A stretch of DNA of 64,000 nucleotides from an uncultured Candidatus Saccharibacteria bacterium. Lineage in GTDB: Bacteria > Patescibacteriota > Saccharimonadia > Saccharimonadales > UBA10212. The notes beneath the pieces were generated by a model. The model was not told the origin of the DNA. It was given only the letters and a program-made list of their open reading frames with translations, and searched no databases. Position 1 is the first letter of the stretch. The number at the start of each line of letters is the position of its first letter. The translations under genes and the position numbers were made by a program. The DNA is taken from contig CAYWQH010000007.1 in the NCBI GenBank assembly GCA_964460855.1, forward strand, positions 5,628-69,627, given 5' to 3'. Of this stretch, positions 8,913 through 40,888 are shown piece by piece.

Positions 8913-8923
8913 CCACGCACCAA

Positions 8924-9056: not shown

Positions 9057-9089
9057 AAATGCGAGGTTAAATAGTCATGTAAGGCAGTC

Positions 9090-9118: not shown

Positions 9119-9127
9119 ATTCAGGTT

Positions 9128-9340: not shown

Positions 9341-9343
9341 CCA

Positions 9344-9796: not shown

Positions 9797-9797
9797 A

Positions 9798-10334: not shown

Positions 10335-11083
10335 AAAGTTATATAAAATCGGCTAGCGAAATTGAAGCGATGCGCCATGGCGCTAAAATTTTGGCCCAGT
10401 CTTTAATTAATGCCAGGGCTAAAGCCGCCGCCGGTATGCGAACCAAGGAGCTGGCCGACAGCATCGCCCTGGATTTAAAAGGCTTTGGCGTGCGCCCGGC
10501 ATTTTTAGGTTACAACGGCTTTCCGGATGTCGCTTGCATTTCGGTTAATAACGAAGTGGTGCACGGCATTCCTGGCAGCCGGGTTATTAAGCAAGGCGAT
10601 ATAGTAAGTATCGATTTAGGCGTGGTTTACAAAGGGTTAATAACTGACAGCGCCACAACCGTATATATAGGAAGCAATGAGCCTGAAGATATTAAAACTT
10701 TAATGCGGTCTACGGAAAAAGCATTATATGACGGAATTGCCGCTATCAATGGCGAAACACCGGTAGGTACCGTAGCCGCCGCCATCCAAAAAGAACTGGA
10801 CAGCCACAAACTCGGTATTGTCAGGGATTTAGTCGGCCACGGCGTGGGCCACGGCATGCACGAGGACCCCAACATTCCCAATTACGGCATAAAAGGCGCC
10901 GGTTTCCGCCTGCAGCCGGGCATGACGGTCGCCATTGAGCCAATGGCTACTTTAGGCGGCTGGCAGGTAAATATAAATAAAGATGGCTGGACGGTCGTAA
11001 CCAGGGACGGTTCGCTCGCCGCCCACTTTGAGCATACCGTATTAATAACCGAAGGCCCGGCCGAAATCCTCACCAAAGCCTAA
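10331..11083 (+). CDS. map: Methionine aminopeptidase, type I
   Basis: 250 aa. Metal-ligand context is present (VVHGIP, DLGVVYKGLITDSATT, GHGVGHGMHEDP, AIEP, HFEHTVLIT). There is a 4-nt overlap with adk. Confidence 0.95.
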   Translation: MKSYIKSASEIEAMRHGAKILAQSLINARAKAAAGMRTKELADSIALDLKGFGVRPAFLGYNGFPDVACISVNNEVVHGIPGSRVIKQGDIVSIDLGVVYKGLITDSATTVYIGSNEPEDIKTLMRSTEKALYDGIAAINGETPVGTVAAAIQKELDSHKLGIVRDLVGHGVGHGMHEDPNIPNYGIKGAGFRLQPGMTVAIEPMATLGGWQVNINKDGWTVVTRDGSLAAHFEHTVLITEGPAEILTKA

Positions 11084-22837: not shown

Positions 22838-25714
22838 GTGGTGAAATTCAAGAAACTGGATAAGAAACCGTACGCCGAGATGGAGCACGAAGTAATAAAT
22901 TATTGGAAAGCCAATAATACTTTCGTGAAATCGGTAGAAAACCGGCCGCCCGAAAACAGCTACGTTTTTTACGACGGACCGCCGTTTATAACCGGGGTGC
23001 CGCATATGGGAACTTTACTTAGCAGCATCGCCAAAGACGTCATACCGCGCTACCACACCATGCGCGGCAAACGGGTAGAACGCGTTTGGGGCTGGGATTG
23101 CCACGGCTTGCCGGCCGAAACTTTTGTAGAGAAACAACTTGGGATCAAAGATAAGCGCGACGTCGCCAAAATCGGCTTGGCCAAATATATTGAAACCTGC
23201 CGGGCAGCCATGATCCAAACCGGGTCGGAATGGGAAGATACCATCGAGCGTATCGGCCGCTGGGTGGATTTTCAGGGCGCTTATAAAACTATGGACAAGC
23301 CTTACATGGAATCAGTCTGGTGGGCCTTTAAACAGCTGTATGACAAGGGCAAGATATATGAAGGCGAAAAAGTACTGCTTTACTGTACGCGCTGCGCTAC
23401 GCCCCTTTCTAAGGCCGAAATCGCTATGGATAACTCGTACGCCGACGTTACCGACCCGTCGGTTTACGTTAAATTAAAAGTAGCCAGCGAAGATTACTAT
23501 TTACTGGCGTGGACGACCACTCCCTGGACATTGCCGGCTAACACTGCCGCCGCCGTCCATCCCGACCTGGAATACACTTTTGTCGAGCATGAAGGCATTA
23601 CTTACGTAGTGGCCAAAGATCTGGTAGAAAAAGTGTTCAGCGATAACCGCGGCAATCCGCTGGAATACAATGTACAAAAAACAGTTCCGGGGCTGGAACT
23701 GGTTGGTAAAAAATACGAGCCGCTGTTTGACAGCCGCGGCGACAATGCCCACCGGGTGTTATCAGCCCCATACGTTACAACCGAAGAAGGTACTGGCATA
23801 GTCCATCTGGCTCCGGCCTACGGCGAAGAAGATTATGAACTGGCCAAAAAAGAAGGCCTGCCGATATACGTAAATATCGATGAGAACGGCTTTTTTAAAG
23901 AAGGCCAATGGCAGGGCACATATGTTTGGGATGCCGACCAGCTAATAGCCGATGCACTTCATCAGCAAGGAAAAGTCTGGCGTATCCAACCCATCCGCCA
24001 CAGTTACCCCCACTGTTACCGCTGCGGCACAAAATTAATGTACCGGGCCCATCCCAGCTGGTTTATGGATATAACCGGCCAGCGCGAGTTAATGCTGGAC
24101 CAGAACGAAAATATATCCTGGTACCCGAAGCATATAAAGCATGGGCGTTTCGAACACACGGTGGCCACCGCTCCAGATTGGAACTTGTCGCGCGACCGGT
24201 TCTGGGCGACGGCCATGCCGGTGTGGCGCGGCGTAAAAGAAGACGGCTCAATAATCACCAAAGTTGTAGGCAGTTATGCCGAGTTAAAAGAGTTATCCGG
24301 GGCCGAATTAGAAGACTACCACCGCCCTTACGTAGACGACGTTACTTTCGAGTACCAGGGCGTGCATATGTCGCGCATAGATAAAGTACTTGATTGCTGG
24401 TTTGAATCCGGCTCGATGCCTTTCGCTCAATTCCACTATCCGTTTGAAAACAAAGAAAAATTCGAAGCCAATTTCCCTGGTGACTTTATCGTCGAATATG
24501 TCGGGCAGGTCAGGGCCTGGTTTTATTACTTGCACGCCGTATCTGTCGGCTTGCAAGGTACCAATAGCTTTAAGCACGTGGTAGTTACCGGCACGCTGGC
24601 CGGCAATGACGGCCGCAAAATGAGCAAATCGCTGGGTAATTTTACCGATCCGATGGTGCTTTTGGACCGCTATAGCGCCGATGCCCTGCGTTTGCTGTTA
24701 ATGAGCTCGCCGGTTATGCACGGCGATGACTTCGCACTAATGGACAAGGATGTGGCTGACATGCAGCGGCGCCTGAATACCTTGCGCTCAACACTGGAAT
24801 TTTTCTTACTATATGCCGAAGCCGATAACTGGGAGGCCCAAGAGGCTGATCTGCAAGTGCCGGACGTCAGTCAGGTGATGGACCGCTGGGTGCTGGCCAG
24901 GCTGTTTGAGGCCCAAAAAGAGGTAGAAACAGCCATGGAAGGCTATGATACTACAGCTGCCACAAAACCCCTGCTGGAATTCATAGAAGACTTATCTAAC
25001 TGGTATGTGCGGCGCAGCCGCAAACGCTTCTGGAAAACCCAAAATGACAGTGACAAGCATGATGCTTACCGCACGTTATACTTCGTACTCATCCATCTAT
25101 CTAAACTAATGGCACCGCTGGCACCTTTTTTGGCCGAAGATATATACCGGACCTTAACGGGCAGGGAATCCGTACACCTGGAAAACTGGCCGGAAAGGGT
25201 AAAACCAGATAATGCTAGCCGGATAATGCTAGAAGAAATGCATAAAGTCAGGGAACAGATAACCGAAGGCTTAGCCCGCCGGGCTGAAGCTAAAATAAAA
25301 GTCCGCCAGCCCTTGGGTCTGGTAAAAATTCCACTGGCAGTTAGCGATAGCGCGCTTTATTCGGAGGTCATAGCTGAAGAGTTAAACGTCAAAACCGTAG
25401 ACTGGATAGAGTCCGGAGAACAGTTACAGCTAGACACTACCGTTACTGACGAGCTAAAAGCCGAGGGCTTAATGCGCGATATTGTGCGACAGGTACAAAG
25501 TACCCGCAAGGCAGCCGGACTTAACGTCGAAGACCGGATATTGCTGGGGCTGGAAACTGGCGATCCGGAGTTGCAATCGGCCATCAATCGCTTCGAATCG
25601 GAAATTGACGCCGAAACACTGGCTACCGGCCGGTTAGCTGGCGATGGTGACAGCTACCAAAACGAAGTCCAAATCGAAAACAAACCTCTAAAAATCCAAA
25701 TCAAAAAGGTTTAA
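22838..25714 (+). CDS. ileS: Isoleucyl-tRNA synthetase
   Basis: 958 aa. HIGH-type motif PHMGTLLS, KMSKS present (GRKMSKSLGN), an editing-domain insertion, and WDCHGLP. GTG start at 22838 or 22841 after GGGAG. Confidence 0.97.
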   Translation: MVKFKKLDKKPYAEMEHEVINYWKANNTFVKSVENRPPENSYVFYDGPPFITGVPHMGTLLSSIAKDVIPRYHTMRGKRVERVWGWDCHGLPAETFVEKQLGIKDKRDVAKIGLAKYIETCRAAMIQTGSEWEDTIERIGRWVDFQGAYKTMDKPYMESVWWAFKQLYDKGKIYEGEKVLLYCTRCATPLSKAEIAMDNSYADVTDPSVYVKLKVASEDYYLLAWTTTPWTLPANTAAAVHPDLEYTFVEHEGITYVVAKDLVEKVFSDNRGNPLEYNVQKTVPGLELVGKKYEPLFDSRGDNAHRVLSAPYVTTEEGTGIVHLAPAYGEEDYELAKKEGLPIYVNIDENGFFKEGQWQGTYVWDADQLIADALHQQGKVWRIQPIRHSYPHCYRCGTKLMYRAHPSWFMDITGQRELMLDQNENISWYPKHIKHGRFEHTVATAPDWNLSRDRFWATAMPVWRGVKEDGSIITKVVGSYAELKELSGAELEDYHRPYVDDVTFEYQGVHMSRIDKVLDCWFESGSMPFAQFHYPFENKEKFEANFPGDFIVEYVGQVRAWFYYLHAVSVGLQGTNSFKHVVVTGTLAGNDGRKMSKSLGNFTDPMVLLDRYSADALRLLLMSSPVMHGDDFALMDKDVADMQRRLNTLRSTLEFFLLYAEADNWEAQEADLQVPDVSQVMDRWVLARLFEAQKEVETAMEGYDTTAATKPLLEFIEDLSNWYVRRSRKRFWKTQNDSDKHDAYRTLYFVLIHLSKLMAPLAPFLAEDIYRTLTGRESVHLENWPERVKPDNASRIMLEEMHKVREQITEGLARRAEAKIKVRQPLGLVKIPLAVSDSALYSEVIAEELNVKTVDWIESGEQLQLDTTVTDELKAEGLMRDIVRQVQSTRKAAGLNVEDRILLGLETGDPELQSAINRFESEIDAETLATGRLAGDGDSYQNEVQIENKPLKIQIKKV

Positions 25715-25733
25715 CTATTTAGGTTTCGTACAT

Positions 25734-25868
25734 GGATGCACCGCTAGGAAGTAGCGAATTTTGAATGAAGCGTATTACACATACGCTGAGTGAAAAATTT
25801 TAGCGTACTGACAACGCGGGGCGCCATGAGTCGCCAAAGCGGCCGGCTTTGCCGGACGATTGGGCGAC
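25734..25868 (+). ncRNA. Copy A of the unassigned four-member structured RNA element family
   Basis: Reads GGAUGCACCGCUAGGA..GAAUGA-AGCGUAU-UACAC-AUACGCU-GAGUGA..GACAACGCGGGGCGCC (25734-25825), then a long hairpin GUCGCC..CCGGC-UUU-GCCGG..GGCGAC (25830-25868). By hand alignment, 81 of 92 core positions are identical to copy B, while the 3' hairpin stems are completely re-written but still pair. Confidence 0.55.
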
Positions 25869-25961
25869 GCTACGAAAGCTAAAAGCTTAACACCTCTGGA
25901 CAGGTGAGAGGATAAGTGGTAACATCTGTTGGTAACTTTTTAACTGTGTAAGGCCAAAAAG

Positions 25962-27283: not shown

Positions 27284-30200
27284 ATGAATCCTGACCTGAT
27301 ATCGCCAAACGAGCCAGACCACAGCAAAATTCCGACTATCGGTCCGGATTCGATCGAGCTGTCAAACGACGCGATTACAACCGAAGTAAGCACTTACAAG
27401 TCGCCTAAATTGTCGTTCAAAGAAGAAGAGAGCCAGGCAAAGATACTGAGCAGCAATTTCCGATCGCCATCTACAATCGCGCTGCTTATTTTGGCGCTGC
27501 TGTCGATAATTTTCGTATCGGCAATGTTCGCTTTTCTGCAAAACAAGCAAGATACCGGCGGGTTACAGACCACAGCCAGTAAAATACCAGTCCAAAAAAT
27601 CAGTTTGCCACTATTATCTTCACAAAAAAGCACGCTTCTGGACCAGACCAAAAAAGACACTTTGCTGGTTAACGGCGACATTTACTCGCAAGGTAACATC
27701 CGCTTGTACAAAGGTGATTACCATATCGATATCCAGGCCGATAATTTGACCGGCAACCAAACGTTCGTGCTGCCCGACGCATCCGGAACAATTTGTTTGA
27801 ACAGTAACAACTGCCAACTGGCTTCGCTTGCCCAACTGAACAAATTAGCGGCCCAGCTGAACACATTACAAGGCCAAAGCGCCGGGGTTGTGAACCTGCA
27901 GGCCGGAACCGGCATTACAATTGCCGGCAACAAGATCAATAATGCCGGCTTGCGGTCGCTAAACGGCTTAACCGGTGGCATTACCCTGCAGGGCACGGCC
28001 AACCAGATAGCAGTTAGCGTTTCTGGCAGCACAATAACCTTAACCACTCCTCAAAATATTGATTTGTTGGCGACCCCCACATTCCAGAGCATTAATTTAA
28101 GCGCAACCGGTACCCAGGGAGGCAACCAGATTTGCGACAGTTCCAATAATTGTGGTTACGCATCTAGTGTCGGCTCCGGCACGGGCGATGTAAACCAGGG
28201 CGGCAACAGCTTTGGCGCGACATTCGCCGTCGGCGCCAACGATAACTTCGGCTTTAATATCAAAACCAATAACACCGTGGTAGCCAGCTTTACCAATACC
28301 GGGCTGGCATTATTTAAACCGGCCGTAAACAGCGTGTCGGCCTTCCAGATCCAGGATAACTCCGGAAATTCGGTTTTGGCGGCAGATACGGCCGGCGGCC
28401 AGCTGGTATTAGGTACGGCTAACAATGTTACCGGCAAAATAAAGTTTATGAGCGCGGCCGGCGCCGGCAGCGTTAGTTTAGCCGTGGCGAATCCGGCAGC
28501 TTCTAACTTCAACCTGGTATTGCCGGCCGAAAACGGTACGCTATGTTCGACGGCCGGCTCGGCCGCCTGTTTGTCGGTGTATGCCGCATCCTCCGGTTCA
28601 GCAAATTATATCCAAAACCAAAATGCCGCGGACCAGGCAGCCGACTTTAGGATTTCCGGCAGCGGCCGGGCCAACACCTCGATTACTACACCGCTGCTCG
28701 ATACGCCAAGCGCGGCCGCCCTCAATATAGGAACGAGCAACGCCACGGCCATAAACTTAAACCAAAGCACCGTAATTGCCACCGGCAAAAGCTTTTCGGC
28801 GTTTGGTAGCGGCTTGTTCCGCGACAACGCCAACTCGGCAACGGCCTTCCAGGTCCAAAACTCGGCCAGCAACAGCGTTTTGACTGTTGATACAACCAAT
28901 GCCTTATTAATACTAGGCAAAGGTTCGACGCTGGCTGGCAAACTGGTTTTAAATAACTCCAGCAATAATTTTAACGGCACCCTTCAAACAGCGGCGCTCG
29001 GCCAAAATACAACTTATACTTTGCCCGATCCCGGCGCCGTTAGTGCCAATATATGTTTAAGTACCGGCAACTGTGCCGCTGCCGGGGCTGCGGGCGGCGA
29101 TTTGACCGGCAATTATCCGAACCCCACAATCGCCAAACTGCAGGGCACAACGGTAACAACCGCCAGCCTGAATGCCGGCGACATATTCTTATATAATGGC
29201 GCCGCCTGGGTCAACCAGGCCGTCAGCGGAGATATTGTATTTAACGGTTCAGGTGTTGCGTCCATCCAAGCAAACAGCGTTGCCCTAGGCACGGATACCG
29301 TAGGCAATTATGTCGATTCGCTGGGCAGCTTAACCGGCTTGACTACTTCGGGCAACAGCGGCGAAGGCAGCACGCCGACCTTGAGCGTTATATATGGAGC
29401 AACAGCGAATTCGGCGGTGCAGGGAAACGTTGCGATTACTTGCCCTAGCGGCTCCGGCAACTTAAGCGGCGGCGGCAACTCGATTACTCTCGGATCGGGC
29501 GGCAGCTGCAACAACATTACAATCAGCAACAGCCCGACTTTCTCGGGGACTTTGGCGGTACAGGGCGCGACCATAACTGTCGGCGCGGCCGCCCAGCAGG
29601 GTTCATTAATATTGAATGACGGCAGCTCCAATACTGGCACGCTACAGCTGGCTGCTTTGGGCCAAAACACGGTTTACACATTACCGGATCCCGGAGCGGG
29701 TTCGACATCAATTTGTTTGACCACCGGCAACTGCGCCGGCCTGGGCGGCGGCATTACCGGCAGCGGTACATCAGGTAAAATCGCTAAATTTACGGCCGGC
29801 GGCGCGATTGGCGATTCTACCTTGAGCGAATCGGGCAGCACTTTAACTGCTTCAGGAAATATTATTATCCAGGGCAGCAATGCCCTGGCGCTAGGCACTA
29901 GCAGCTCAATAGACGGCTCGATTAAGTTTTATAATTCGCTGGGGGCGCATACTGTTACCTTGCAAGCCCCGGCAGCCGACCCGCTGGCCGACTTGACCTT
30001 TAAATTGCCATCATCATACGGCGGCAACGGCGATTGCTTGCTCTCTAACGGCATAGGCGGCTTATCATTCAGCGCTTGCACCGGCGGGGCCGGCGGCGGT
30101 GTTACCAACTTAGACAGCCAAACCGGTGTGGTTACGCTGGCTAACAGTAGCGGTAGCGGCGGCACGGTCACTATCGATGACGCCTCGACCGCCCAAAAAG

Positions 30201-33200
30201 GTATCGTCCGGTTTAACAACACCAACTTCAGCGTGGCCAGTGGCATCGCCAATACTATCCAGGATATAGCTACGACTTCCAGCCCGACGTTTACGGCTAT
30301 CAATACCAATACGATTACACCTTCCGGAGCCTTCACGCTTGGCGCTACCGGCCAGAGCTTCACCCTGCAGGGCAGCAGTGCCAGCAAGCTAACGGCTACC
30401 GGCGGCGGCTTTACGACTACTATCGGCTTCACCGGCGTAGCTACGGCTTCGCAAACGTTTAACTTCGACCGCACGGCTGCGGCCGGCACCTACACAATCT
30501 GTACTACCGCGGTTGTATGTGCCGGATACGCGGCCAGTTCCGGTTCGGGCAATTATATCCAAAACCAGAATTCGGCCGACCAAAGCGCCGACTTCCGCAT
30601 CAGCGGCACCGGCCGGGCCAATACTTCCATCCAAACGCCATTACTGGATACAGCCGCCGCCGCCGCCTTAAACATCGGCACCAATAACGCTACGGCCGTT
30701 AATTTAAACCAAAATACTAATGTCGCCAGCGGCAAGATTTTCTCGGTGCTGGGCACCAGCCTATTTAAAAATAATGCCGATTCAGCTACGTCATTCCAAA
30801 TCCAGAATGCCGGCGGACGCAACGTCTTTACCGCCGATACCAGCAGCGCCCAGATAATATTGGGCGATGGCACCCACTTAAACGGCAAATTGGTATTTAA
30901 AAACAGCACCAATAACTTCAGCGCCATTGTCCAATCGGCAGTAATTGCCCAGGATACGACCTATAATTTGCCGGACGGCGGCGGGGCCAGCGTTGATTTT
31001 TGTTTGAGCAGCGGTAACTGCGTAGCAGCCGGCACGGCCGGCGGCGACTTGACCGGTTCTTACCCGAACCCGACAATTGCCAAGCTCCAGGGCGCCAACC
31101 TTAATACTTCCAGCCTGACTGCCGGCGACCTGATGTTATACGACGGTTCGCAGTGGCTAAACCAGGCCCTATCCGGTGACGCTTCGGTAAACGGTTCCGG
31201 ATCAGTTACGATTTCGGCTAACGCCGTTGCATTAGGTACCGATACGACCGGCAATTATGTGGCTACGCTAGGCTCGCTGACCGGTTTGAGTACTACCGGC
31301 AACAGCGGTGAAGGCAGTTCCCCGACGCTTAGCGTTCTGTACGGCGCGATCGCGAATACGGCGGTGCAGGGTAATGTAACTTTGACTTGCCCGGGCGGCA
31401 CCGGCAATGTCGGTGGTGGCGGCAATACTATCACGCTCGGCAGCGGCGGCAGCTGTAGCAACATTACATTCAGCAATAGCCCGACTTTCTCCGGTACGTT
31501 AACTGTCCAAGGGGCAACGGTTACTGTCGGCACGGCCGCCCAGCAAGGATCATTGGTATTAAATGATGGCAGCGCTAACACCGGTACCCTTAAGACTGCC
31601 GCTTTAGGCCAGGACACAATTTATAGCTTGCCGGATCCAGGCGCTGGTTCTACGACTATTTGTATCAGCACCGGCAACTGCGCCGGCGCCGGCGGCGGTA
31701 TAACCGGCAGCGGCACCGATGGCAAATTGACCAAATTCGCCGGCGGCGGCACCCAGGTAGTTGATTCAACCTTGAGCGAATCAGGCAGTACATTAACGGC
31801 CAGCGGCAATATAGTTATCCAAGGCGGCAACAGCTTAACGCTGGGCACTAGCAACTCACTGGATGGTTCAATCAAGTTCTACAACTCATCCGGCACCCAT
31901 ACGGTTACGCTTCAGGCTCCAGCCGCCGATCCGTTATCCAACCTGACATTTAAATTGCCGTCAGCGGACGGGAGCGCCGGCGACTGTTTATTAACCGACA
32001 GCTTTGGAGGCTTGTACTTTAATGCATGCCCGGGCGGCGGGGGCGGCAGCGTAACCAGCATTGATTTATTGAGCGGCGCTTTAACTATCGCTAACAGCAC
32101 AGGCAGCGTCTCAACTATAACGATCGATGACGCCTCTACCGCCCAAAAAGGCATCGTCCGGTTTAACAACACCAACTTCAGCGTGGCCAGCGGCATCGCC
32201 AATACCATCCAGGATATCGCTACCACATCCAGCCCGACATTCGCATCAATAAACACTAATACAATAACGCCGTCCGGCGCCTTTTCGCTGGGAGTGACCG
32301 GCCAAAGCTTTACACTTCAAGGCAGCAGCGCCAGTACCGTAACCGCTACCGGCGGAGGTTTTACTACGACCGTTGGTTTTGCCGGTGTAGCCACGGCTTC
32401 GCAAACGTTTAACTTCGACCGCACGGCCGCCGCCGGAACATATACTATCTGCACCACGGCAACAGTTTGTGCCGGTTATGGCGCGGCGTCGGGCAGCGGC
32501 AACTATATCCAAAACCAAAGCGCATCCGACCAGTCTGCCGACTTCCGCATCAGTGGCACCGGCCGGGCCAATACCTCGGTCCAAACACCGTTGCTTGATA
32601 CCGCTACCGGCGTAGCCTTAAACATCGGTACGACCAATGCCACCAGTATCAACTTAAACCAGTCCGTAAGCATCGCAGCCAACAAGAGCTTATCTTACGC
32701 CGCAGGTTCGGGCACGTTCGACCAAAGCGCCAGCAGCGGCACGTTCTCGACAGGTTCGGGCAATGTCTCTATAAACGGCAATGCGACCGTAGCCAATAAC
32801 AAAAGCTTTACCGCCAATGGAGCAGCTGTATTCCAGGACGCTACCAATGGTACTTCAGCTTTCGTGATCCAAAAAGCGACCGCCTCGGACATTTTATTCA
32901 CCGCAGATACATCTAATAACCGGGTAATAATCGGTAATGCCACGGCGTCTGCCGGCTCGGATACGACTGCGCTGGTTTTGGATTCAGCCGCTACAGCTAA
33001 CGCCCCAAGCGGCATTAATGGCGCCATGTATTACGATACTACCTTGAATAAATTCGAATGTTACCAAAATGGAATTTGGGTAGACTGTATTACCAATACC
33101 GGTGCCGGCGGCCCGACTTTGCAATCGGCCTATAACAACTCTACCGGCGGCACCACGCCCGAAATTAAACTCGACAGCACCCGCGGCGCATTGGATATCC

Positions 33201-36200
33201 AAGACGCCAACTCTACAATTGGCGGCAACTTATTAAATATCCGGGCCAGCAATGGCAGCGGCTTGGGCCAGATACTATTTGGGGTCGGCAATACCGGCGC
33301 CATAACCGCCCAAAACAGCTCCAATTCGACGGCCGCCTTCCAAATCCAAGACGCCGCCGGGACCTCGCTGTTAAATGTCGACACTTCAACGGCTCTAAGT
33401 GTGCTGGCCAATCCCAGCGCCGAACAAGCCCTGGCCGGCAACTGGATAGCCAAAGGCGGCGCCACGGTAACCCAGGACAGCACCCAGAAGTGGATTGGCA
33501 ATAACTCCATAAAAGTCATAACGACTGCTTCTAATGTGGATGGCGTCCAGCAAAACATTACCTTAACCGACGGCCCGGCCGTAACTTACGGCCTGACTTT
33601 CATGGCCAAGCTGGATGGTGCCAGCGCCGCCTTTAACACCATTATTGCCCGCTACAATAACGGCACGGCTGATACGGCTTGTTTGGCCGGCGGCGGGGTA
33701 GTATCGACGGGCTGGCAGCGCTACACTTGTACGTTCAACTCGCCAAACTCGCATTCCGGCACTCCATACTTATATATCGGCCAATCAGATAATACCGCCC
33801 ACACCTTCTATATTGATGCCATCCAACTGATCCAGAACTCCACCTTGTCGCCATATACGGACGGCGTAATTTCACTAAACGGTGTTATAAGTTCGCCGGC
33901 TATTTTCCAAAACCAAAGCGACTCCACCAATGCTTTCCAAATCCAAAACTCCACAGGTACCAGCAACGCGCTTATAGTAGACACGGTTAACAGCCGGGTC
34001 GGCATTGCCGGCCGGCCGTCGATACTTTCGACATCTGGCCTGGAAGTAACCGGCACAACTTACTCTTCGACTGGCTTTGTCATCGGCACCAGCACCAGTG
34101 CCGGCAACATCACCAAGTTCTTTACGGTTGGAACCGGCGGGGTAACCGCCTCCCATCCGGTTGTCCTTAATACAGACAGCGGCAACCCAAGGGTGATGGA
34201 AACAACCGTTGCCCGCGACCAGCATGTTATTGGCGTAGCTGGCACGACTGCCGCCGCCACAGGAACAGCCTGGGTAACTATTTATGGGGCAGCCCAAGTT
34301 AACGCTGATGCCCACGTCTTCGGCAGCGCCGGCGGTGCCATTGCCCCTGGCGACCGCTTGGTTGTAAGCGCTTCGGGCACAGTATATAAGGACAATAGCG
34401 CTACTTCCGGAATTGTTGGTATCTCGCAGGGCACATTGGCCTTAAACGGCACCAGCTCCACCTTAAACATTTGGGTCATGCCCCAAACCGGCAATGATAA
34501 CGCCCGGTTCCAAAACACTGTCGATAACGGTACGTCATTCGCCATCCAAAATGCCGCCGGCACCAGCCTATTAAACTCAGATACGACAAACAGCCGGATT
34601 TCTATCGGCTCTACAGGTACTAACACCGGCCAGTTATACGTCAGCGGCTTGGTAAACTCAACGGCCGTCAGCTCGACCGCGGTTAATGCCGGTGACTTGC
34701 GCATCCAGGGCAAGTTCGGCTATGAGCTGGACGGCAGCACTAACAGCTTCTTTATCTATGACTTTACCAACCCGGCCAGCCCGACTCTGGTTAACACTGT
34801 TAATACCAACACCACCGGATCTTGCGTTTGGCCGTCGGCCATAGTGATTGGCGGAAAATATGCCTATATAACTTGCCAAACCAACGACAAGCTGGGCATT
34901 TACGATATATCGAATCCGAAATCAGTCACTAGCGTTTCGACGACATCCACCGGTAATGCCGACGAGCAGGGCCTATTCTTATCAGGCCGCTACCTTTACC
35001 ATGCCACCGGCTCAGCCGGAACGCTGCAAGTCTGGGATGTCGCCAACCCGGCCCTGCCGGTACTTAAAGGTACAAAGACCTTTGCCGCCAATACCAGGAC
35101 TTACAGCGTGTTTGTCCAGGGCCGCTACGCTTATGTCGCGTCGCGCGACTCGGTAACTGCCGCTAACTCTAAGTTTTACATCGTTGACGTGGTTGATCCG
35201 ACCAACCCGACCCAGGTCGGTTCATTTACTACGGCCGATACTCCGATAAGCGGTTTTGAAACCGGCTACCAATATGTTTATGTCCAGGGTATTTACGCTT
35301 ACGTGACAATTGCCGGCTCAACTGATGCCGTCAAAGTGTTAAATATTTCCGACCCGACCAATCCTACGTTGGTAAGCACTATCAGCGGCGCCGGCGCCGG
35401 GCCGACATCTGTCGTAGTTCGCGGCAAATACTTGTACATTGGCTTTTATAACTCTACTCGAATTGTCATATATGACATTTCTAACCCGGCCGCCCCGGCA
35501 TCAGTAAATACTGTTGGTACTACAAATGGCGTGATAAGTATGCAGATCCAGGGCCGCTACGCCTACACCACCAACGCCGGCAACACCATGCGGGTTTACG
35601 ACCTGGGCGGCGCCTATATCCAGCAGCTGGAAGCCGGCGGCATTGAAACCAGCGTGCTGCAAGTAAATAATTCGGCAAATATTTTGGGCGATGCCAACAT
35701 TGCCGGCGGCTTATCAATCGGCCAAAGCCTTCAGCTAAACGGCAACTTAGGCGCCAGCGGCCAGGCTATGTTCCAAAACGCCGCCAACTCCACCAGCGCC
35801 TTCCAAATCCAAAACGCCGCCGGTGGCAGTATATTTAACGCCGATACTACTAACGGCGGAGCTATTACGGTACTCGGCCAAAATAGCGGCGAAGTCGGTT
35901 CCTGGACAACCCAAGCCAGCAACTTGAATACTGCTTTGCAAGACAGCTCAGCTGTATACGCGAACGGTTACATATATATCTTGGGCGGCGCAAACGGCAC
36001 CCCCACGGCCCAAACTACTACCCAATACGCCAAAGTAAACGCCGATGGCAGCTTGGCGGCATTCACGGCCGGACCGTCGCTGCCAGCCGCCCGGGTAAAC
36101 GGCACCGCTGTTTACCTAAACGGTTATATATACTACATATCCGGCGGAAGCAGCAACGGCTCGATTTATTACAGCAGGGTTAACCCCGACGGAACACTTA

Positions 36201-39200
36201 ACGCCTGGCAAACTAACCCGCTAGTTTATCCTGTATCAAACAACGGCACACGAACCGGCTTAACTTCCTTTACCTACAACGGCTATATTTATACCTGGAG
36301 CGGCAGCAACATTCAGGAATACACCTTCGTTAAGCCAAACACCGACGGTACTTTAAGCAACTGGACGTACGTACAGAACTTCGCAAACACTAACAACCGG
36401 TCATTTACCGGCTTAGCAGTCGCAAATGGCTTCGTTTACTGGGTCGGCGGCCAAAACAATACTGGTACTCCAACAACAAGCGTCACATTCTCCACCATTA
36501 ATAGTGACGGGACTCTTAGCACGCCAACTTCAACCACCGCTTTGCCGGAAGCCCGTTCAACATACGGCGGCCGGGTAGAAGTGGTTAACGGCTACTTGTA
36601 CGTAATGGGAGGCGTCAACGCCTCCGGCACCTTACGCAGTACTGTTTACTATGCCAAGCTTAACTCTAACGGCACAGTCGGTAACTGGAATACCGCTGTG
36701 AATAATTTACCGGTGGCAACTGGTATTTCCGACAACGAGACAATGAGCGCAAATGGTTACTTGTACGTTATTGGCGGTAACCTGAATGCCTCGAATGCAG
36801 TCTCTGCTACGACGTACTATGCTTCGGCCTCGCGCTTAAGTGTCGGCGGCGCACTTGATCTGGTAGGCTCCACCGCAAACAGCGGTTCTATCGCTAGCGG
36901 CGGCGGCTCATTAACTTCCGGAAATACCAACGTATTAGGATCACTTAATGTGGCTGGCGAATCATCATTTAGCGGCGGCGCGTCGTTTGCCGGTTTACTT
37001 TCAGCCGGAGCCGGCATTAACGTCCAGGGCAGCGCCAACGCCACTGCGCTATCTACTACTACTTTGTCCGCTCCATCCGGCTCGGTAACAGTTGCCACCG
37101 CTGGCTCGGCCGGCGGTGCTACTTGGTCATATAAGATCACGGCAGTTGACGGTAATGGCAACGAATCCACTACTTCGGCAACCGGATCAATCGGTACCGG
37201 AAACGCAAACCTTGACACCTCAAACTTTAACAAGATTACTTGGAATACCGTCCGTGGCGCCAGTTACTACAACATTTACCGAACAGCAGTAGGTACGTCG
37301 CCAGCCACAACCGGCTTAATTGCTACTGTTGCCGCCGGCCCGAACGCTACTCAAACAGCCTTTGACCAAGGCGCCCAAGGCGCAACCGGTTCGACGCCAG
37401 TGACTACCACTAAATCCGGCAGCCTATCAGTTGCCGGCGCCATCCAGGGCCAGGCTTCATTCGTCGGCGATATCTTGTCCAGCCAACTTACTCCGGTCGG
37501 CGGCGTATCTGTCAACACTAACACAACGGGCGCAACCAGCTACACGTACGCCGTAACTGCTGTAGACGTTCAGAATAACGAAACGTCAGCAACTTCCGTT
37601 ACCTATGGAAGCGGTAATGCCAACATTGCTACGAGCAACAACGTAATAGTCTGGAGCCCGGTACCCGGCGCAGCTAAATATAAGATTTACCGCACGGCAT
37701 CAGCCGGTTTGCCGGCTACCACCGGCCTTATTGGTACGAATACTATCAGCAACAACAACACTAATATCGGCCCGCAAACCTTCATTGATACAGGTATTGC
37801 TGGTGACGGCAGCATCGCGCCTTCTACCAATACCACCGGCGTCGCGGTGTTTAACGGCTACTCAACTACGTCAAAAAGCGCCGTTAATAACTCTACGGCC
37901 TTCCAAATCCAGAATGCAGCGGGAAGCAGCCTGTTTACGGCCGACACCAGTAGGTCTAGCATTACCATTTTAGGAAACAACAGCCCAGAAACGGGCACTG
38001 GCTCCGGTAACTGGACAACTGCCGCAAATACCTTTACAGGTATTAGAAGCGGTGAGGCGGCCGTAACCGCTAACGGCTACATTTATGTGCTGGGCGGCAA
38101 TACTTCGACCACCAGCGTCCAATACGCTAAATTAAATGCCGACGGCAGTCCGGGAACTTGGGCGGCTACCACCGCTTTGCCATCAGCCCGGGCCAACATC
38201 GCCGCAGTATTCTATAACGGTTATATCTGGATATTTGGCGGAACTTCCGATACTAACGTATATAGCGCTAAAGTTAATACTGACGGCACGCTAGGTTCAT
38301 GGAACCAGACCACTTCGCTAACAGCCGCCACAAGCTTGGACCGAATTGCCGCCGTGACGGCCAATGGCTATGTATATATCATCGGCGGCCGGACAACCAG
38401 CGGCACGGTCGTTAGCAGCCAAACGCAGTGGGCTAAGTTAAACTCTGATGGTACGATTACCAGCTGGACCCAAGGATCCGGCGGCCAGCTGCTGCCGGCG
38501 GCCCGCGAAGGCGGCTCGGCCGTGATTGCCAACGGCTACGTCTATTATGTCGGCGGCTTAAATGTAAACCCGCAAAACAACGTATATATCGCCCAGGTTA
38601 ACGCCGACGGCTCTCTAGGTAACTGGTCGACCAGTGGCAATCCGCTGCCAGATTCTAACGCGCCGGGCGCCGGCCGGGCTTATCATGGCTTGGTCCAACT
38701 AAACGGTTACTTATACGTAATAGGCGGGCGCTTGAATGGTTCAGGCACCGGTACAAATACAATCGAATACTCTCAAATCACCGCTGCCGGTACAAATAGT
38801 AGTTGGTCGACATCCGGCCAAACTTTACCAGCTACCCGTTATATAACCCGGGCAGTTACCGAAAACGGCTATATTTACTTGCTGGGCGGTGTCGACAACG
38901 TCGGCCCGACCGACCAGAACACAACGTATTACACCTCAACCCAGCGCCTTAAAGTCGGTGGTTCGCTAGACTTGGTGGGCCTATCCGGGATAAACCTGGC
39001 CGATAGCGGCGCTACGGGCGGTAACTTAACAGCTGGCAATGGCTACTTCGTAGGCCGGCTGCAAGTTAAAGACCAGGCTACATTTGACGCGGGTCTTTCC
39101 GTAGAAGGCGAAACTGTTGCAAGGGGCGGTTTGACGATCGTCAGCACCGGTACGGGTAATATTCCATTGCAGATAAATAACACCACCACCGGCATTAACT

Positions 39201-40888
39201 TACTGCAAGTCAAAGACCTGAACACTAATTTTGGATCGGCCGTTACCGGCGGCGCCTTTATCGGCCGCAACAGCTACTTCGGCGAAGAGTTTAATAACTA
39301 TCGCGGCACGGCGGCTACTGCCGATTGTATCCAGGGACGCGGTGACTTTGGCGACCCCGGAACGGCTGCCTGTACCACCGGCACAGGTGAATTAACGCTC
39401 GACGTAACCACAACTGGCGGCGGCACCAACAGCGTGTCTTCGGTAGCCGATACCGTTAACGGCATCGAAAGCATCGGCGCTACTTCTGCCATAGGCGGCA
39501 CGTCGGTGGCCGAAGAATACCTTGGCTCGGCTACCATCAATGATGCCCAGCGCAACTGGCAACTCGGCAACCTGCCGGTAATGACTTTCAAATTCAAGCC
39601 ATCAGTTGCGGCAGCCGGGCAGTCATTCTACCTGGGCTTAACCGACCAGGATACGCCGGCGATCTCCACGGCCACGGCCAACGGCGTCTGGTTCAGCAAC
39701 TGTTCAACGGCCGCCGCTACGCCAACCTGCGACGGAACCTTGAGGGGTGTCGTTGCCAACGGAGCAGGTACAGTTACCACCGTTTCTTGCGGCGCGGTCA
39801 GCACTACCAAGTACACTTACGGCCGCATCGAAGTCCGCAGCGCCACCGATATCCACTTCTTTGTTGACCTGGATGTCAGCGACGGCATAGTTGAAACGGA
39901 GTGCGGCAGCGGCATTACTACCAATATACCTACCGGTACGACGGCCATGACGCTGTTTGCCAAAGCGGCCGACGGCAACTCAGCCGCCGAAACAACCACA
40001 CTATTAGTCGATTACATGCGGGCCTGGCAGGATGACAACTTGCCACCCAACGACCCCGACCAAAAAGCCCCGGCTACTTCACCGGATGGCCAGCCTGTCG
40101 AGACTGCGGCCCCATTGTCGCCGGATTCAGCCGATCCAACCGTTTTAGGCAGCTTCTTCAACTTCAATGCCGCTACGAGCGAAGATGTAGTATTCAACCA
40201 CAATGTTTATGTCCACGGTACCCTATACGCCGACAAGATCAAAGCCAATGAAATAGATGGTTTGAGCATCTTTACCGACCAAATAACCAGCCTGCAACAG
40301 CAAATCGCCGCCAACCTGGCTGCCCAACAAACTGCCGGCAACCCCAACGATCAAAAATCGGGTGGCGCGGCAACTACGCCGGTTATGCCGGCTGCTAAAT
40401 ACAGCATTAATCTGAGCGCCGGAGGCCTAAGCGTTGGCGGCGACGCTGAGTTCCACGGCAATGCGATGTTCTATAAACTTGTAACGTTTGTCGAGAAATC
40501 GGTCTTTAATAACGATATCCGCTTCAATGGCCATATTACTACCGGCGGCGGGGTACCGTCAGCCACATTGGAAAGCGGAGCTGGCTTAACTACAGCCCCA
40601 AATACCGATCCGACGGCCGCGGTGGCCCAAGCAGCGTTAGATGGCAACGATAACTCCGGCCAGATAAACGTTAAAGTTGGCAGTTCGCCGGCCATCGGTA
40701 AACTCTTAACGGTCAACTTTAGCCGCGCTTACGAAAAAGCCCCGCAGGTGTACTTAACCGCCCAATCAGGCGACTCGGCCGGCGTCAGGTACTACGTACA
40801 GTCAACTAACAGCGGTTTCACTATCTTTATCTTAGATACGCCGGCAGCCGGCACCAACCTGTCATATAACTATCTGGTTATCCAGTAG
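27284..40888 (+). CDS. Giant membrane-anchored surface protein 1 (4534 aa): fibre-like repeats + CBM4/9-like module + LVIVD propeller + two Kelch propellers + FN3-like pair
   Basis: An uninterrupted 13.6-kb ORF with a single N-terminal TM helix. The T/S/G/A/N-rich composition and the domain calls come from motif reading (see sub-features). It is paralogous in long blocks to the 6044-aa ORF. Confidence 0.9.
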   Translation: MNPDLISPNEPDHSKIPTIGPDSIELSNDAITTEVSTYKSPKLSFKEEESQAKILSSNFRSPSTIALLILALLSIIFVSAMFAFLQNKQDTGGLQTTASKIPVQKISLPLLSSQKSTLLDQTKKDTLLVNGDIYSQGNIRLYKGDYHIDIQADNLTGNQTFVLPDASGTICLNSNNCQLASLAQLNKLAAQLNTLQGQSAGVVNLQAGTGITIAGNKINNAGLRSLNGLTGGITLQGTANQIAVSVSGSTITLTTPQNIDLLATPTFQSINLSATGTQGGNQICDSSNNCGYASSVGSGTGDVNQGGNSFGATFAVGANDNFGFNIKTNNTVVASFTNTGLALFKPAVNSVSAFQIQDNSGNSVLAADTAGGQLVLGTANNVTGKIKFMSAAGAGSVSLAVANPAASNFNLVLPAENGTLCSTAGSAACLSVYAASSGSANYIQNQNAADQAADFRISGSGRANTSITTPLLDTPSAAALNIGTSNATAINLNQSTVIATGKSFSAFGSGLFRDNANSATAFQVQNSASNSVLTVDTTNALLILGKGSTLAGKLVLNNSSNNFNGTLQTAALGQNTTYTLPDPGAVSANICLSTGNCAAAGAAGGDLTGNYPNPTIAKLQGTTVTTASLNAGDIFLYNGAAWVNQAVSGDIVFNGSGVASIQANSVALGTDTVGNYVDSLGSLTGLTTSGNSGEGSTPTLSVIYGATANSAVQGNVAITCPSGSGNLSGGGNSITLGSGGSCNNITISNSPTFSGTLAVQGATITVGAAAQQGSLILNDGSSNTGTLQLAALGQNTVYTLPDPGAGSTSICLTTGNCAGLGGGITGSGTSGKIAKFTAGGAIGDSTLSESGSTLTASGNIIIQGSNALALGTSSSIDGSIKFYNSLGAHTVTLQAPAADPLADLTFKLPSSYGGNGDCLLSNGIGGLSFSACTGGAGGGVTNLDSQTGVVTLANSSGSGGTVTIDDASTAQKGIVRFNNTNFSVASGIANTIQDIATTSSPTFTAINTNTITPSGAFTLGATGQSFTLQGSSASKLTATGGGFTTTIGFTGVATASQTFNFDRTAAAGTYTICTTAVVCAGYAASSGSGNYIQNQNSADQSADFRISGTGRANTSIQTPLLDTAAAAALNIGTNNATAVNLNQNTNVASGKIFSVLGTSLFKNNADSATSFQIQNAGGRNVFTADTSSAQIILGDGTHLNGKLVFKNSTNNFSAIVQSAVIAQDTTYNLPDGGGASVDFCLSSGNCVAAGTAGGDLTGSYPNPTIAKLQGANLNTSSLTAGDLMLYDGSQWLNQALSGDASVNGSGSVTISANAVALGTDTTGNYVATLGSLTGLSTTGNSGEGSSPTLSVLYGAIANTAVQGNVTLTCPGGTGNVGGGGNTITLGSGGSCSNITFSNSPTFSGTLTVQGATVTVGTAAQQGSLVLNDGSANTGTLKTAALGQDTIYSLPDPGAGSTTICISTGNCAGAGGGITGSGTDGKLTKFAGGGTQVVDSTLSESGSTLTASGNIVIQGGNSLTLGTSNSLDGSIKFYNSSGTHTVTLQAPAADPLSNLTFKLPSADGSAGDCLLTDSFGGLYFNACPGGGGGSVTSIDLLSGALTIANSTGSVSTITIDDASTAQKGIVRFNNTNFSVASGIANTIQDIATTSSPTFASINTNTITPSGAFSLGVTGQSFTLQGSSASTVTATGGGFTTTVGFAGVATASQTFNFDRTAAAGTYTICTTATVCAGYGAASGSGNYIQNQSASDQSADFRISGTGRANTSVQTPLLDTATGVALNIGTTNATSINLNQSVSIAANKSLSYAAGSGTFDQSASSGTFSTGSGNVSINGNATVANNKSFTANGAAVFQDATNGTSAFVIQKATASDILFTADTSNNRVIIGNATASAGSDTTALVLDSAATANAPSGINGAMYYDTTLNKFECYQNGIWVDCITNTGAGGPTLQSAYNNSTGGTTPEIKLDSTRGALDIQDANSTIGGNLLNIRASNGSGLGQILFGVGNTGAITAQNSSNSTAAFQIQDAAGTSLLNVDTSTALSVLANPSAEQALAGNWIAKGGATVTQDSTQKWIGNNSIKVITTASNVDGVQQNITLTDGPAVTYGLTFMAKLDGASAAFNTIIARYNNGTADTACLAGGGVVSTGWQRYTCTFNSPNSHSGTPYLYIGQSDNTAHTFYIDAIQLIQNSTLSPYTDGVISLNGVISSPAIFQNQSDSTNAFQIQNSTGTSNALIVDTVNSRVGIAGRPSILSTSGLEVTGTTYSSTGFVIGTSTSAGNITKFFTVGTGGVTASHPVVLNTDSGNPRVMETTVARDQHVIGVAGTTAAATGTAWVTIYGAAQVNADAHVFGSAGGAIAPGDRLVVSASGTVYKDNSATSGIVGISQGTLALNGTSSTLNIWVMPQTGNDNARFQNTVDNGTSFAIQNAAGTSLLNSDTTNSRISIGSTGTNTGQLYVSGLVNSTAVSSTAVNAGDLRIQGKFGYELDGSTNSFFIYDFTNPASPTLVNTVNTNTTGSCVWPSAIVIGGKYAYITCQTNDKLGIYDISNPKSVTSVSTTSTGNADEQGLFLSGRYLYHATGSAGTLQVWDVANPALPVLKGTKTFAANTRTYSVFVQGRYAYVASRDSVTAANSKFYIVDVVDPTNPTQVGSFTTADTPISGFETGYQYVYVQGIYAYVTIAGSTDAVKVLNISDPTNPTLVSTISGAGAGPTSVVVRGKYLYIGFYNSTRIVIYDISNPAAPASVNTVGTTNGVISMQIQGRYAYTTNAGNTMRVYDLGGAYIQQLEAGGIETSVLQVNNSANILGDANIAGGLSIGQSLQLNGNLGASGQAMFQNAANSTSAFQIQNAAGGSIFNADTTNGGAITVLGQNSGEVGSWTTQASNLNTALQDSSAVYANGYIYILGGANGTPTAQTTTQYAKVNADGSLAAFTAGPSLPAARVNGTAVYLNGYIYYISGGSSNGSIYYSRVNPDGTLNAWQTNPLVYPVSNNGTRTGLTSFTYNGYIYTWSGSNIQEYTFVKPNTDGTLSNWTYVQNFANTNNRSFTGLAVANGFVYWVGGQNNTGTPTTSVTFSTINSDGTLSTPTSTTALPEARSTYGGRVEVVNGYLYVMGGVNASGTLRSTVYYAKLNSNGTVGNWNTAVNNLPVATGISDNETMSANGYLYVIGGNLNASNAVSATTYYASASRLSVGGALDLVGSTANSGSIASGGGSLTSGNTNVLGSLNVAGESSFSGGASFAGLLSAGAGINVQGSANATALSTTTLSAPSGSVTVATAGSAGGATWSYKITAVDGNGNESTTSATGSIGTGNANLDTSNFNKITWNTVRGASYYNIYRTAVGTSPATTGLIATVAAGPNATQTAFDQGAQGATGSTPVTTTKSGSLSVAGAIQGQASFVGDILSSQLTPVGGVSVNTNTTGATSYTYAVTAVDVQNNETSATSVTYGSGNANIATSNNVIVWSPVPGAAKYKIYRTASAGLPATTGLIGTNTISNNNTNIGPQTFIDTGIAGDGSIAPSTNTTGVAVFNGYSTTSKSAVNNSTAFQIQNAAGSSLFTADTSRSSITILGNNSPETGTGSGNWTTAANTFTGIRSGEAAVTANGYIYVLGGNTSTTSVQYAKLNADGSPGTWAATTALPSARANIAAVFYNGYIWIFGGTSDTNVYSAKVNTDGTLGSWNQTTSLTAATSLDRIAAVTANGYVYIIGGRTTSGTVVSSQTQWAKLNSDGTITSWTQGSGGQLLPAAREGGSAVIANGYVYYVGGLNVNPQNNVYIAQVNADGSLGNWSTSGNPLPDSNAPGAGRAYHGLVQLNGYLYVIGGRLNGSGTGTNTIEYSQITAAGTNSSWSTSGQTLPATRYITRAVTENGYIYLLGGVDNVGPTDQNTTYYTSTQRLKVGGSLDLVGLSGINLADSGATGGNLTAGNGYFVGRLQVKDQATFDAGLSVEGETVARGGLTIVSTGTGNIPLQINNTTTGINLLQVKDLNTNFGSAVTGGAFIGRNSYFGEEFNNYRGTAATADCIQGRGDFGDPGTAACTTGTGELTLDVTTTGGGTNSVSSVADTVNGIESIGATSAIGGTSVAEEYLGSATINDAQRNWQLGNLPVMTFKFKPSVAAAGQSFYLGLTDQDTPAISTATANGVWFSNCSTAAATPTCDGTLRGVVANGAGTVTTVSCGAVSTTKYTYGRIEVRSATDIHFFVDLDVSDGIVETECGSGITTNIPTGTTAMTLFAKAADGNSAAETTTLLVDYMRAWQDDNLPPNDPDQKAPATSPDGQPVETAAPLSPDSADPTVLGSFFNFNAATSEDVVFNHNVYVHGTLYADKIKANEIDGLSIFTDQITSLQQQIAANLAAQQTAGNPNDQKSGGAATTPVMPAAKYSINLSAGGLSVGGDAEFHGNAMFYKLVTFVEKSVFNNDIRFNGHITTGGGVPSATLESGAGLTTAPNTDPTAAVAQAALDGNDNSGQINVKVGSSPAIGKLLTVNFSRAYEKAPQVYLTAQSGDSAGVRYYVQSTNSGFTIFILDTPAAGTNLSYNYLVIQ
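27470..27540 (+). other. N-terminal signal-anchor TM helix of giant protein 1
   Basis: STIALLILALLSIIFVSAMFAFL follows a ~60-aa polar N-terminus. It is the only strongly hydrophobic stretch in the protein. Confidence 0.7.
28604..32690 (+). repeat. In-frame tandem duplication of a 1947-nt (649-aa) super-module: two full units plus the first ~190 nt of a third
   Basis: The landmark aaYtatatccaaaacca recurs at 28604, 30551 and 32501 (offsets 1947 and 1950 nt). The protein units are collinear (..NYIQNQ..ADFRISG.GRANTS.. ..GDLTG.YPNPTIAKLQG.. ..DDASTAQKGIVRFNNTNFSVASGIANTIQDIATTSSPTF..). Confidence 0.85.
33408..33836 (+). other. CBM4/9-like (galactose-binding-like jelly roll) module in giant 1
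   Basis: NPSAEQALAGNWIAKGGATVTQDSTQKWIGNNSIKV..YGLTFMAKL..GWQRYTCTF..FYIDAIQL fits the CBM_4_9 pattern (W.....sl.v ... Y.lsf..k ... W..y...f ... fyiDdv.l). Confidence 0.55.
34700..35615 (+). other. LVIVD-repeat beta-propeller
   Basis: About 6-7 blades of the pattern G.YAY(V/I)....(L/V).(I/V)(Y/V)D(I/V)SNP..P, for example GKYAYITCQTNDKLGIYDISNPKS, GRYAYVASRD..FYIVDVVDPTNPT, GKYLYIGFYNSTRIVIYDISNPAAP. Confidence 0.6.
35944..36830 (+). other. Kelch-type beta-propeller 1 of giant 1
   Basis: Six repeats of NGY(I/L)Y(I/V)(L/M)GG......YYA(K/R)(V/L)N.DG(T/S)(L/V)..W. Confidence 0.6.
37060..37790 (+). other. Pair of FN3-like domains
   Basis: TWSYKITAVDGNGNEST..ITWNTVRGASYYNIYRT and SYTYAVTAVDVQNNETS..VIVWSPVPGAAKYKIYRT. 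Confidence 0.5.
38050..38950 (+). other. Kelch-type beta-propeller 2 of giant 1
   Basis: Repeats ANGYIYVLGGN..VQYAKLNADGSPGTW, YNGYIWIFGG, ANGYVYIIGG, ANGYVYYVGG, LNGYLYVIGG, ENGYIYLLGG. Confidence 0.6.

Follow-up and report, generated by a model that had tools for sequence, protein, structure and literature searches.

Dispersed hairpin-forming repeats in Candidatus Saccharibacteria that resemble the palindromic elements of Rickettsia

The four structured elements described in this study, which are located in a stretch of genomic DNA of 64 kb termed the window, are members of a large family of dispersed hairpin-forming repeats of 120-200 nt that is common in assemblies of Candidatus Saccharibacteria. 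The behaviour of this family matches that of the Rickettsia palindromic elements (RPEs) and we thus read it as selfish, non-autonomous mobile DNA, assigning a probability of about 0.72 to the view that it constitutes a new group of palindromic mobile elements of the RPE-like kind. The window encodes a type-2 IleRS and giant Kelch/LVIVD surface proteins, and the closest database relatives of its L21 protein, which are 70-76% identical, are named Saccharimonadales.

Results

Four copies of a three-way junction element

The initial annotation of the window had proposed four collinear copies of a structured element, all of which were recovered at the same places and on the same strands. A search of the window with a covariance model (R1) constructed from copies A, B and C and 29 foreign copies, carried out with filters off, has returned exactly four matches, which correspond to C (99.3 bits), A (72.9 bits), B (63.7 bits) and D (42 bits, E = 2e-10), the last of which was detected although it had been left out of the model. 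The best score of any other sequence of the window was 12.7 bits. Similarly, the window contains three occurrences of the core pattern CGTATNNNACATACGNTGAGNGA, compared to an expectation of 0.04. The copies and their parts, as defined by minimum-free-energy folds, are located as follows:

25724-25877, + strand: copy A, whole three-way junction element (folds; R1 72.9 bits)
25731-25828, + strand: copy A, rod with helices P2-P6, GA-rich internal loops and a CGUAU-loop-AUACG apex (folds)
25830-25868, + strand: copy A, side hairpin with GGCUUUGCC apex (folds)
60946-61116, + strand: copy B, whole element (folds; R1 63.7 bits)
60960-61057, + strand: copy B, rod (folds)
61059-61100, + strand: copy B, side hairpin with GGCUUUGCC apex (folds)
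8908-9071, - strand: copy C, whole element (folds; R1 99.3 bits)
8964-9058, - strand: copy C, rod (folds)
8922-8961, - strand: copy C, side hairpin with UGCUUUGCU apex (folds)
60340-60537, - strand: copy D, whole element, the most divergent copy (folds; inverted repeat I1; R1 42 bits)
60411-60509, - strand: copy D, rod (folds)
60369-60409, - strand: copy D, side hairpin, apex diverged to GCUCUGC (fold)

All four copies are intergenic. Copy A, whose palindrome may extend to 25718-25883, starts 10 nt past the stop codon of ileS (25712-25714), and copy D starts 10 nt past the stop of a gene encoding a protein of 6044 residues, to which it is antisense. Copy C resides in the divergent spacer between priA (6597-8570, - strand) and a yqeY-like gene (9344-9796, + strand), and copy B in the spacer preceding the third of the giant genes, upstream of a promoter-like site at 61365-61392. 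These giant open reading frames follow each other on the + strand at 27284-40888 (4534 residues), 42196-60330 (6044 residues) and 61404-64000 (more than 865 residues, continuing past the end of the window). The first of them contains LVIVD and Kelch repeats, and relatives carry Kelch or Laminin_G giants at the same place behind rplU.

The flanks of copy B (60700-60950 and 61117-61230) are G-poor tracts rich in A and C, which hold a perfect 10-bp hairpin (ACGUUCCGGU, a 17-nt loop and ACCGGAACGU) at 60890-60926, upstream of the third giant gene. Open reading frames also run across copy D (60340-60696, + strand) and copy B (60947-61195, - strand), and a further one (9121-9600, - strand) adjoins copy C, where it overlaps the Pfam-supported yqeY-like gene on the opposite strand. 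These three frames, which comprise between 82 and 159 residues, are probably spurious, and the real genes in the vicinity of copy C are the yqeY-like gene (9344-9796), adk (9714-10334) and map (10331-11083).

Fold, covariation and strand preference

Each of the four copies folds far better than its shuffled counterparts, with z-scores ranging from -4.4 to -6.0 and none of 200 shuffles being as good. The folds reproduce the features described in the initial annotation, which include the pairing between the 5' and 3' segments, the two tandem G.A loops with two covarying pairs between them, the CGUAU/AUACG hairpin, the exchange of AAUUUU/AAAAUU for AAUUUC/GAAAUU and a 3' hairpin with GCUUUGC apex, whose stems differ in sequence yet pair. 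They also reveal an outer helix (P1) that had been missed, in which the sequence 5' of the rod pairs with the sequence 3' of the 3' hairpin in all four copies to form a tight three-way junction. As P1 encloses both the rod and the side hairpin, the elements are larger than first reported, and the original extent of about 115-135 nt describes the core part of elements that in fact span 150-200 nt. The strands of P1 are unrelated between copies (UUUCGUA, UUCAUUCGC.CGUA, UUUAACC.CGCA and CCACGGCGCUCACA), and each pairs with its own partner. In copy D, the outer stem is long, with arms of 24 nt that are 83% complementary.

The different parts of the element have diverged unevenly. The high identity of A and B, previously counted by hand as 81 of 92 positions of the core, was confirmed in a recount over the rods, which are identical at 85 of 98 positions (87%). 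In contrast, the side hairpins of the two copies share 52% and their P1 helices 56% of their bases, compared to 47% in aligned random 40-mers. The similarity of the rods next to a side hairpin and a P1 helix that are close to random is not predicted by a simple decay of transposed copies.

In the family as a whole, the fold comprises an outer stem and a rod, which contains purine-rich internal loops and ends in an apical hairpin that hardly varies, with stems that covary freely, whereas the side hairpin is an extra part found in the lineage of the window. The compensatory base changes noted initially are abundant. In a MAFFT alignment of 32 copies, 90% of the cells at paired positions form standard pairs, compared to 22-39% with partners slid, and double changes are found at 14 of 22 pairs with 140 compensatory cells, whereas none of 500 shuffles matches the observed covariation. 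The invariance of the apex in this set is a consequence of the search pattern that imposed it, and copies found by the model alone covary also in this region (CCGUAC/GUACGG, GGUAC/GUACC).

The original statement that wobble pairs fit only one strand has turned out to be weak, since apart from a single conserved G.U position (present in 30 of 47 copies), GU/UG and AC/CA combinations occur at similar frequency (20 versus 16). Of 54 copies, 50 fold better on the assigned strand, a number that falls to 41 once the core is masked, and this advantage stems mostly from the purine-rich loops. The conserved loops are rich in G and A, as found in functional RNAs.

Two interpretations of parts of the element were discarded. 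The side hairpin does not appear to be an independent element, as its GGCTTTGCC apex is absent from the free-standing spacer hairpins of the window, and a function of the apical TTGACA as -35 promoter box was rejected because the sequence is not kept in the copies of the window and has no -10 partner.

Distribution of the family

Extending the search beyond the window, as suggested by the initial annotation, R1 has identified 70 matches in 52 fetched loci, all of which fold as long hairpins or three-way junctions. Individual searches with R1 gave 47, 14 and 4 copies, and copy A was recovered a second time from two short contigs that belong to the organism of the window. The exact core pattern of 22 bases is present in 28 loci of a genome collection containing one genome per species, with several genomes carrying more than one locus. 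In 24 cases, the carriers are titled Candidatus Saccharibacteria, Saccharimonadia or Saccharimonadales, and the remaining four include two titled only 'bacterium', one Gammaproteobacteria and one Bdellovibrionales. The carriers with the latter two labels, CAZOPY010000042.1 (L002) and CAXREJ010000044.1 (L026, 325 kb), could reflect mis-binning or transfer between phyla. Another 12 loci with the exact core pattern were found in metagenomes, where a scan for the window's own subtype (GGATGCA...) gave no match.

In agreement with the initial annotation, which could not match the element to a familiar RNA family, none of the Rfam 15 covariance models matches the window at gathering score, and a search around the copies at E-values up to 10 returned only noise (mir-1954, ZTP with 14 bits, isrB). 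Likewise, only tRNAs were matched by Rfam in 18 other loci bearing copies.

Occupied and empty sites

The gene order ftsA-ftsZ-nrdR-RNR-...-ileS-rplU is kept in relatives of the window, which permits a comparison of the spacer between ileS and rplU:

247 nt, window: copy A present
45 nt, L033: no copy
82 nt, L035: no copy
224 nt, L031: no copy

A search of 53 kb of these three relatives with R1, with filters off, did not yield a match. The initial annotation had regarded polymorphism in the presence of copies as evidence against an RNA gene, and such polymorphism is illustrated by the absence of copy A from the corresponding spacer in all three relatives. It is equally found in a loop of PolA described below and in the spacer between map and ftsA, which contains three tandem copies in L025 but is devoid of them in the window and in L033, where it measures 52 and 87 nt, respectively. 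A putative empty site beside the window's gene for a protein of 587 residues was dismissed, as this gene is not orthologous to that of L001 and L011. Two near-identical copies of one genome (L001 and L010) differ by a compensated pair.

The ileS-rplU spacer of L031 contains structure of its own, with a 13-bp palindrome (GAGTTAACTAGC..GCTAGTTAACTC) at 9768-9802, right behind ileS, and a second structured stretch at 9872-9975, past a promoter-like site, neither of which is matched by R1.

Genomic context and transcription signals

The comparison of context across copies, which had also been proposed initially, has placed them in spacers, where they occur singly or beside stop codons, in tandem arrays, between tRNA genes and in frame inside genes. 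Two arrays of L025 (2297-2851 and 6643-7126) each contain three tandem copies at a distance of about 220 nt, the middle of which carries an extra inserted hairpin. Since both arrays share identical flanks in part, they point to a segmental duplication. Copies alternate with tRNA genes in L002 (1581-1977) and L019 (24-329 and 1788-2134), and those of L019 are oriented as the tRNAs and would thus belong to the tRNA precursor transcript. For nine of the 13 intergenic copies examined, the distance between a stop codon and the start of the element is about 12 nt or less, and TAG is the stop codon in nine of the 13 cases. Intergenic copies are mostly antisense to the adjacent gene.

A promoter-like site of rplU (TGGACA-17-TAACAT, 25897-25925) is located downstream of copy A and aligns with sites of the type TTTACA-17-TAAGCT in relatives, which places copy A outside the leader of this gene. 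On its own strand, copy C is preceded by a promoter-like site (9157-9128) and followed by a run of seven U, whereas scans for a preceding promoter-like site and a following U-tract found neither in A, B and D. The elements thus do not qualify as intrinsic terminators, which consist of a GC-rich hairpin with a U-run directly behind it on the transcribed strand, since such a run is present at C only.

Copies inside genes

In other genomes, about 20 copies, corresponding to approximately one third of the total, are located in frame and free of stop codons inside genes, whereas the scan with R1 found no such copy in the window. The hosts include genes encoding PolA, Fpg (with two copies), ArgRS, DnaG, Mur ligases, IleRS and DnaE, and the reading of translations has added another class I aminoacyl-tRNA synthetase and a MurD-like ligase. 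In PolA, Fpg, DnaG, IleRS and the Mur ligase of L021, the insert is flanked by Pfam domain matches on either side. The copies are read through as an extra loop of 35-50 residues with recurring peptides (..SxDALLxxRMSNTxRSxTP.. and ..SSDSPVRSHRTSSTAPLRASNLP..) that are set by subfamily and reading frame. A profile of the inserted peptide provided seven candidates and one match in a protein database, whose word index misses short serine-rich queries of this kind.

The positions of the inserts vary between homologues. Two ArgRS proteins from two species, which are 60% identical, contain them at different positions. PolA homologues with 66-76% identity range in length from 773 to 945 residues, and the lengths of the set P0122-P0241 cluster near 790, 810, 825, 865 and 920-945 residues. 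A loop in the 5'-3' exonuclease domain of PolA is empty in P0123, P0124 and P0129, reads QADEAGGYETYIV in the closest homologue, whose locus (L052) shows no R1 match, and is filled in L007, L042, L049, L050 and L051. As the copies in this loop belong to different subfamilies and are inserted in two codon phases, they suggest repeated insertion into a permissive or preferred loop. Their stems are perfect and differ in sequence, which could instead reflect selection in place. In the PolA protein P0144, an insert of the family type (..SPVRSHRTGSTAPLRASNLP..) is found in the linker between the exonuclease and polymerase regions rather than in the exonuclease loop.

With one exception, the coding insertions lie antisense to the strand that folds. 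Read in sense orientation, which is that of the fold, the core contains UGA in all three frames, which explains why coding inserts survive almost only as antisense. Correspondingly, frames are open in 8% of cases in sense and in 38% in antisense orientation, compared to 24% in shuffled sequences. In the lone sense insertion, located in the DnaE gene of L027, GAGUGAG is replaced by GAGGGAG.

The ArgRS of L023 contains a further insert of 37 residues (7308-7457) that is absent from the ArgRS of L014. The underlying DNA forms a long hairpin with an energy of -64 kcal/mol on the antisense strand and is not matched by R1. It probably belongs to a second, unrelated palindromic family.

Ends of the elements

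Whereas the centre of the element is conserved, its termini are variable and the outer stems differ completely between copies. Conserved terminal inverted repeats were not found, and the ends contain only subfamily motifs, with (T)CGAACCC on the 5' and GGC-pyrimidine run-TA on the 3' side. There is also no fixed flanking word at the foot of the hairpin. In a permutation test of 53 copies, which is crude since element boundaries were taken from energy folds, no signal of target-site duplication was detected, with flank repeats averaging 2.74 nt compared to 2.49 +/- 0.15 nt in permutations, and repeats of at least 5 nt in one copy compared to an expected 2.2. A clean AAAAAC direct repeat is limited to copy B, which it flanks at 60940-60945 and 61117-61122, and a TTAAC pair near copy A (25711-25715 and 25887-25891) is offset by 2-3 nt. 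Both were rejected as target duplications, being single cases in A-rich sequence that are not accompanied by a family-wide signal. Ten neighbouring genes that were scanned, which are housekeeping genes or do not match Pfam, include no transposase. Together, the absence of duplications, the variable ends and the lack of a neighbouring transposase argue against a classical miniature element moved by a cut-and-paste mechanism.

Discussion

The distribution of the copies is best accommodated by mobile elements of the RPE-like kind. They would spread as selfish DNA, mobilised by an activity supplied in trans, with the conserved centre serving as a cis-acting site that is recognised on the folded single strand and with outer stems that would only be required to pair. 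The lack of duplications combined with the better folding of one strand, found in 50 of 54 copies, would fit such recognition. The copies of the window would in this case be passengers, with A residing in the 3' region of ileS ahead of the rplU promoter, B and C in spacers and D behind a giant surface-protein gene. The conserved GA-rich centre and the strand bias in folding would also be compatible with a function of the element as a single-stranded structure, consisting of either RNA or DNA.

Of the two options offered by the initial annotation, a multi-copy small RNA or a dispersed structured element, the latter has stood up, whereas the RNA gene has not, in light of the empty orthologous sites and the in-frame inserts in genes. 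A structured small RNA that acts in trans or binds protein and that is transcribed from the assigned strand, with copies in genes being exapted or dead, would account for the strong covariation, the conserved GA-rich loops and apex, the preference for one folded strand in 50 of 54 copies, the promoter-like site and U-run on the strand of copy C, and for the rods of A and B being much better kept than their stems. We still consider it quite improbable, because empty orthologous spacers and antisense in-frame gene inserts do not fit a dedicated small-RNA gene, or for that matter a riboswitch. The occupancy of the examined sites differs between genomes, and roughly one copy in three is part of the reading frame of a gene that runs antisense to the folded strand, an orientation that most intergenic copies likewise show relative to the gene next to them. 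A, B and D show neither a promoter-like site before nor a U-tract after the element, and the tandem arrays and their segmental duplication equally speak against it. A leader or riboswitch controlling the downstream gene, which would be rplU for A and priA for C, each located on the strand of the gene, appears hardly credible. Copy A lies upstream of the promoter-like site of rplU, and this position together with the empty spacers of three syntenic relatives has led us to reject an rplU leader of the L21 type. Moreover, D is found in antisense orientation behind a gene, family members are inserted into unrelated coding sequences, and Rfam contains no matching riboswitch or leader.

The proximity to stop codons in nine of 13 intergenic copies, exemplified by copy A 10 nt past the end of ileS, the copies among tRNA genes, which in L019 share their orientation, and the U7 run behind copy C would all agree with a cis-acting element of mRNAs that has originated from a mobile repeat and was adopted by the host as 3'-end hairpin, processing site, terminator or insulator beside stop codons and in tRNA operons. 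However, most stop-adjacent copies are antisense to the upstream gene, whose mRNA consequently bears the weaker fold, a U-tract is missing behind A, B and D, the same spacers are empty in relatives and copies in coding sequence could not perform such a task, and we thus regard this adoption as improbable. Possible, if unlikely, is a structured mobile module of an undescribed kind, where the GA-rich rod would work as folded single strand of RNA or DNA, with its fold selected in place even in essential genes, and where movement without terminal repeats or duplications would rely on an activity specific to the candidate phyla radiation, or where the rod would be a protein-binding RNA module used by the host. 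This proposal is motivated by four observations: the parts of A and B have diverged unevenly, stability is biased towards one strand, copies in the PolA loop have stems that are perfect yet differ in sequence, and the centre of the element is conserved while its ends vary. It is the family's overall likeness to RPEs that leads us to favour selfish palindromic repeats.

Irrespective of their mode of spreading, the elements are a source of variation in protein length in proteomes of the candidate phyla radiation. They can also mislead gene callers, both through spurious open reading frames, of which 60340-60696 is an example, and by adding unexplained inserts to genuine genes. The presence or absence of copies could mark strains apart and thus be of use in typing, and the conserved structured core offers a handle on the mobilising activity.

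Comparison with known repeats

The ERIC/IRU elements of enterobacteria and the BOX, RUP and Correia (NEMIS) elements are similar in being imperfect palindromes of about 100-150 bp. They are transcribed within neighbouring mRNAs in either orientation and are sometimes intragenic, although in-frame invasion of essential genes is rare, and ERIC also has a conserved central inverted repeat. In contrast, terminal inverted repeats are conserved in Correia elements and in most miniature inverted-repeat elements, which also show duplications of TA or other targets. Neither feature was found in the family described here, whose variable termini and conserved centre are the opposite of the classical arrangement. 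REP/RAYT systems and palindrome-associated elements derived from IS200/IS605, which depend on HUH Y1 transposases, resemble the family in the absence of target duplications. In these systems, a hairpin with non-canonical features is recognised on only one of the two DNA strands in single-stranded form, which would fit the strand-biased fold of the family. REPs are 20-40 nt long, and relatives of IS200/IS605 have separate hairpins at the left and right end and insert 3' of a fixed tetra- or pentanucleotide, whereas the repeats of Saccharibacteria constitute one long fold without conserved flanking word, and no Y1 gene is found among the ten neighbouring genes scanned. Integron attC sites, which have conserved R''/R' ends (GTTRRRY), a variable centre and arrays behind cassette genes, were excluded since here the centre is conserved and the ends vary, and the neighbours are core housekeeping genes. 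The QMITE1 and QMITE2 repeats of Coxiella burnetii are small non-autonomous repeats of an obligate intracellular host that are reported to affect the evolution of proteins and small RNAs (PMC5896051). They differ in being described there as classical miniature inverted-repeat elements, a comparison that is based on description.

Full-text searches of one literature library did not reveal a description of such an element for Saccharibacteria or the candidate phyla radiation, and the listed papers that combine the term 'palindromic' with Saccharibacteria deal with CRISPR, viromes or microbiome surveys. The family thus apparently represents unreported RPE-like palindromic repeats with unusual anatomy in a new phylum. 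The RPEs comprise RPE-1 to RPE-10 (Ogata et al., 2000; Ogata et al., 2002; as summarised in PMC10969869). They measure about 150 bp and insert into unrelated genes of a reduced genome while keeping the reading frame (PMC10969869). As judged from description, the likeness concerns palindromic repeats of about 100-150 bp that are dispersed through the genome of a reduced bacterium dependent on a host. They are placed in spacers and also in frame within unrelated housekeeping genes, whose products thereby gain a short peptide. The likeness also extends to the apparent coexistence of several families, here suggested by the second hairpin insert in the ArgRS of L023. The two groups differ in their hosts, which are Alphaproteobacteria in the case of RPEs, and in features particular to the Saccharibacteria family, which include its very conserved GA-rich centre combined with freely varying outer stems, the three-way junction variant, the tandem arrays and a strong antisense bias that is explained by the UGA codons of the core. 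That palindromic repeats invade essential genes in frame has been regarded as particular to Rickettsia (PMC10969869), and an analogous family in Saccharibacteria, which are likewise a reduced lineage dependent on hosts, would suggest that such invasion is a recurrent outcome of genome reduction.
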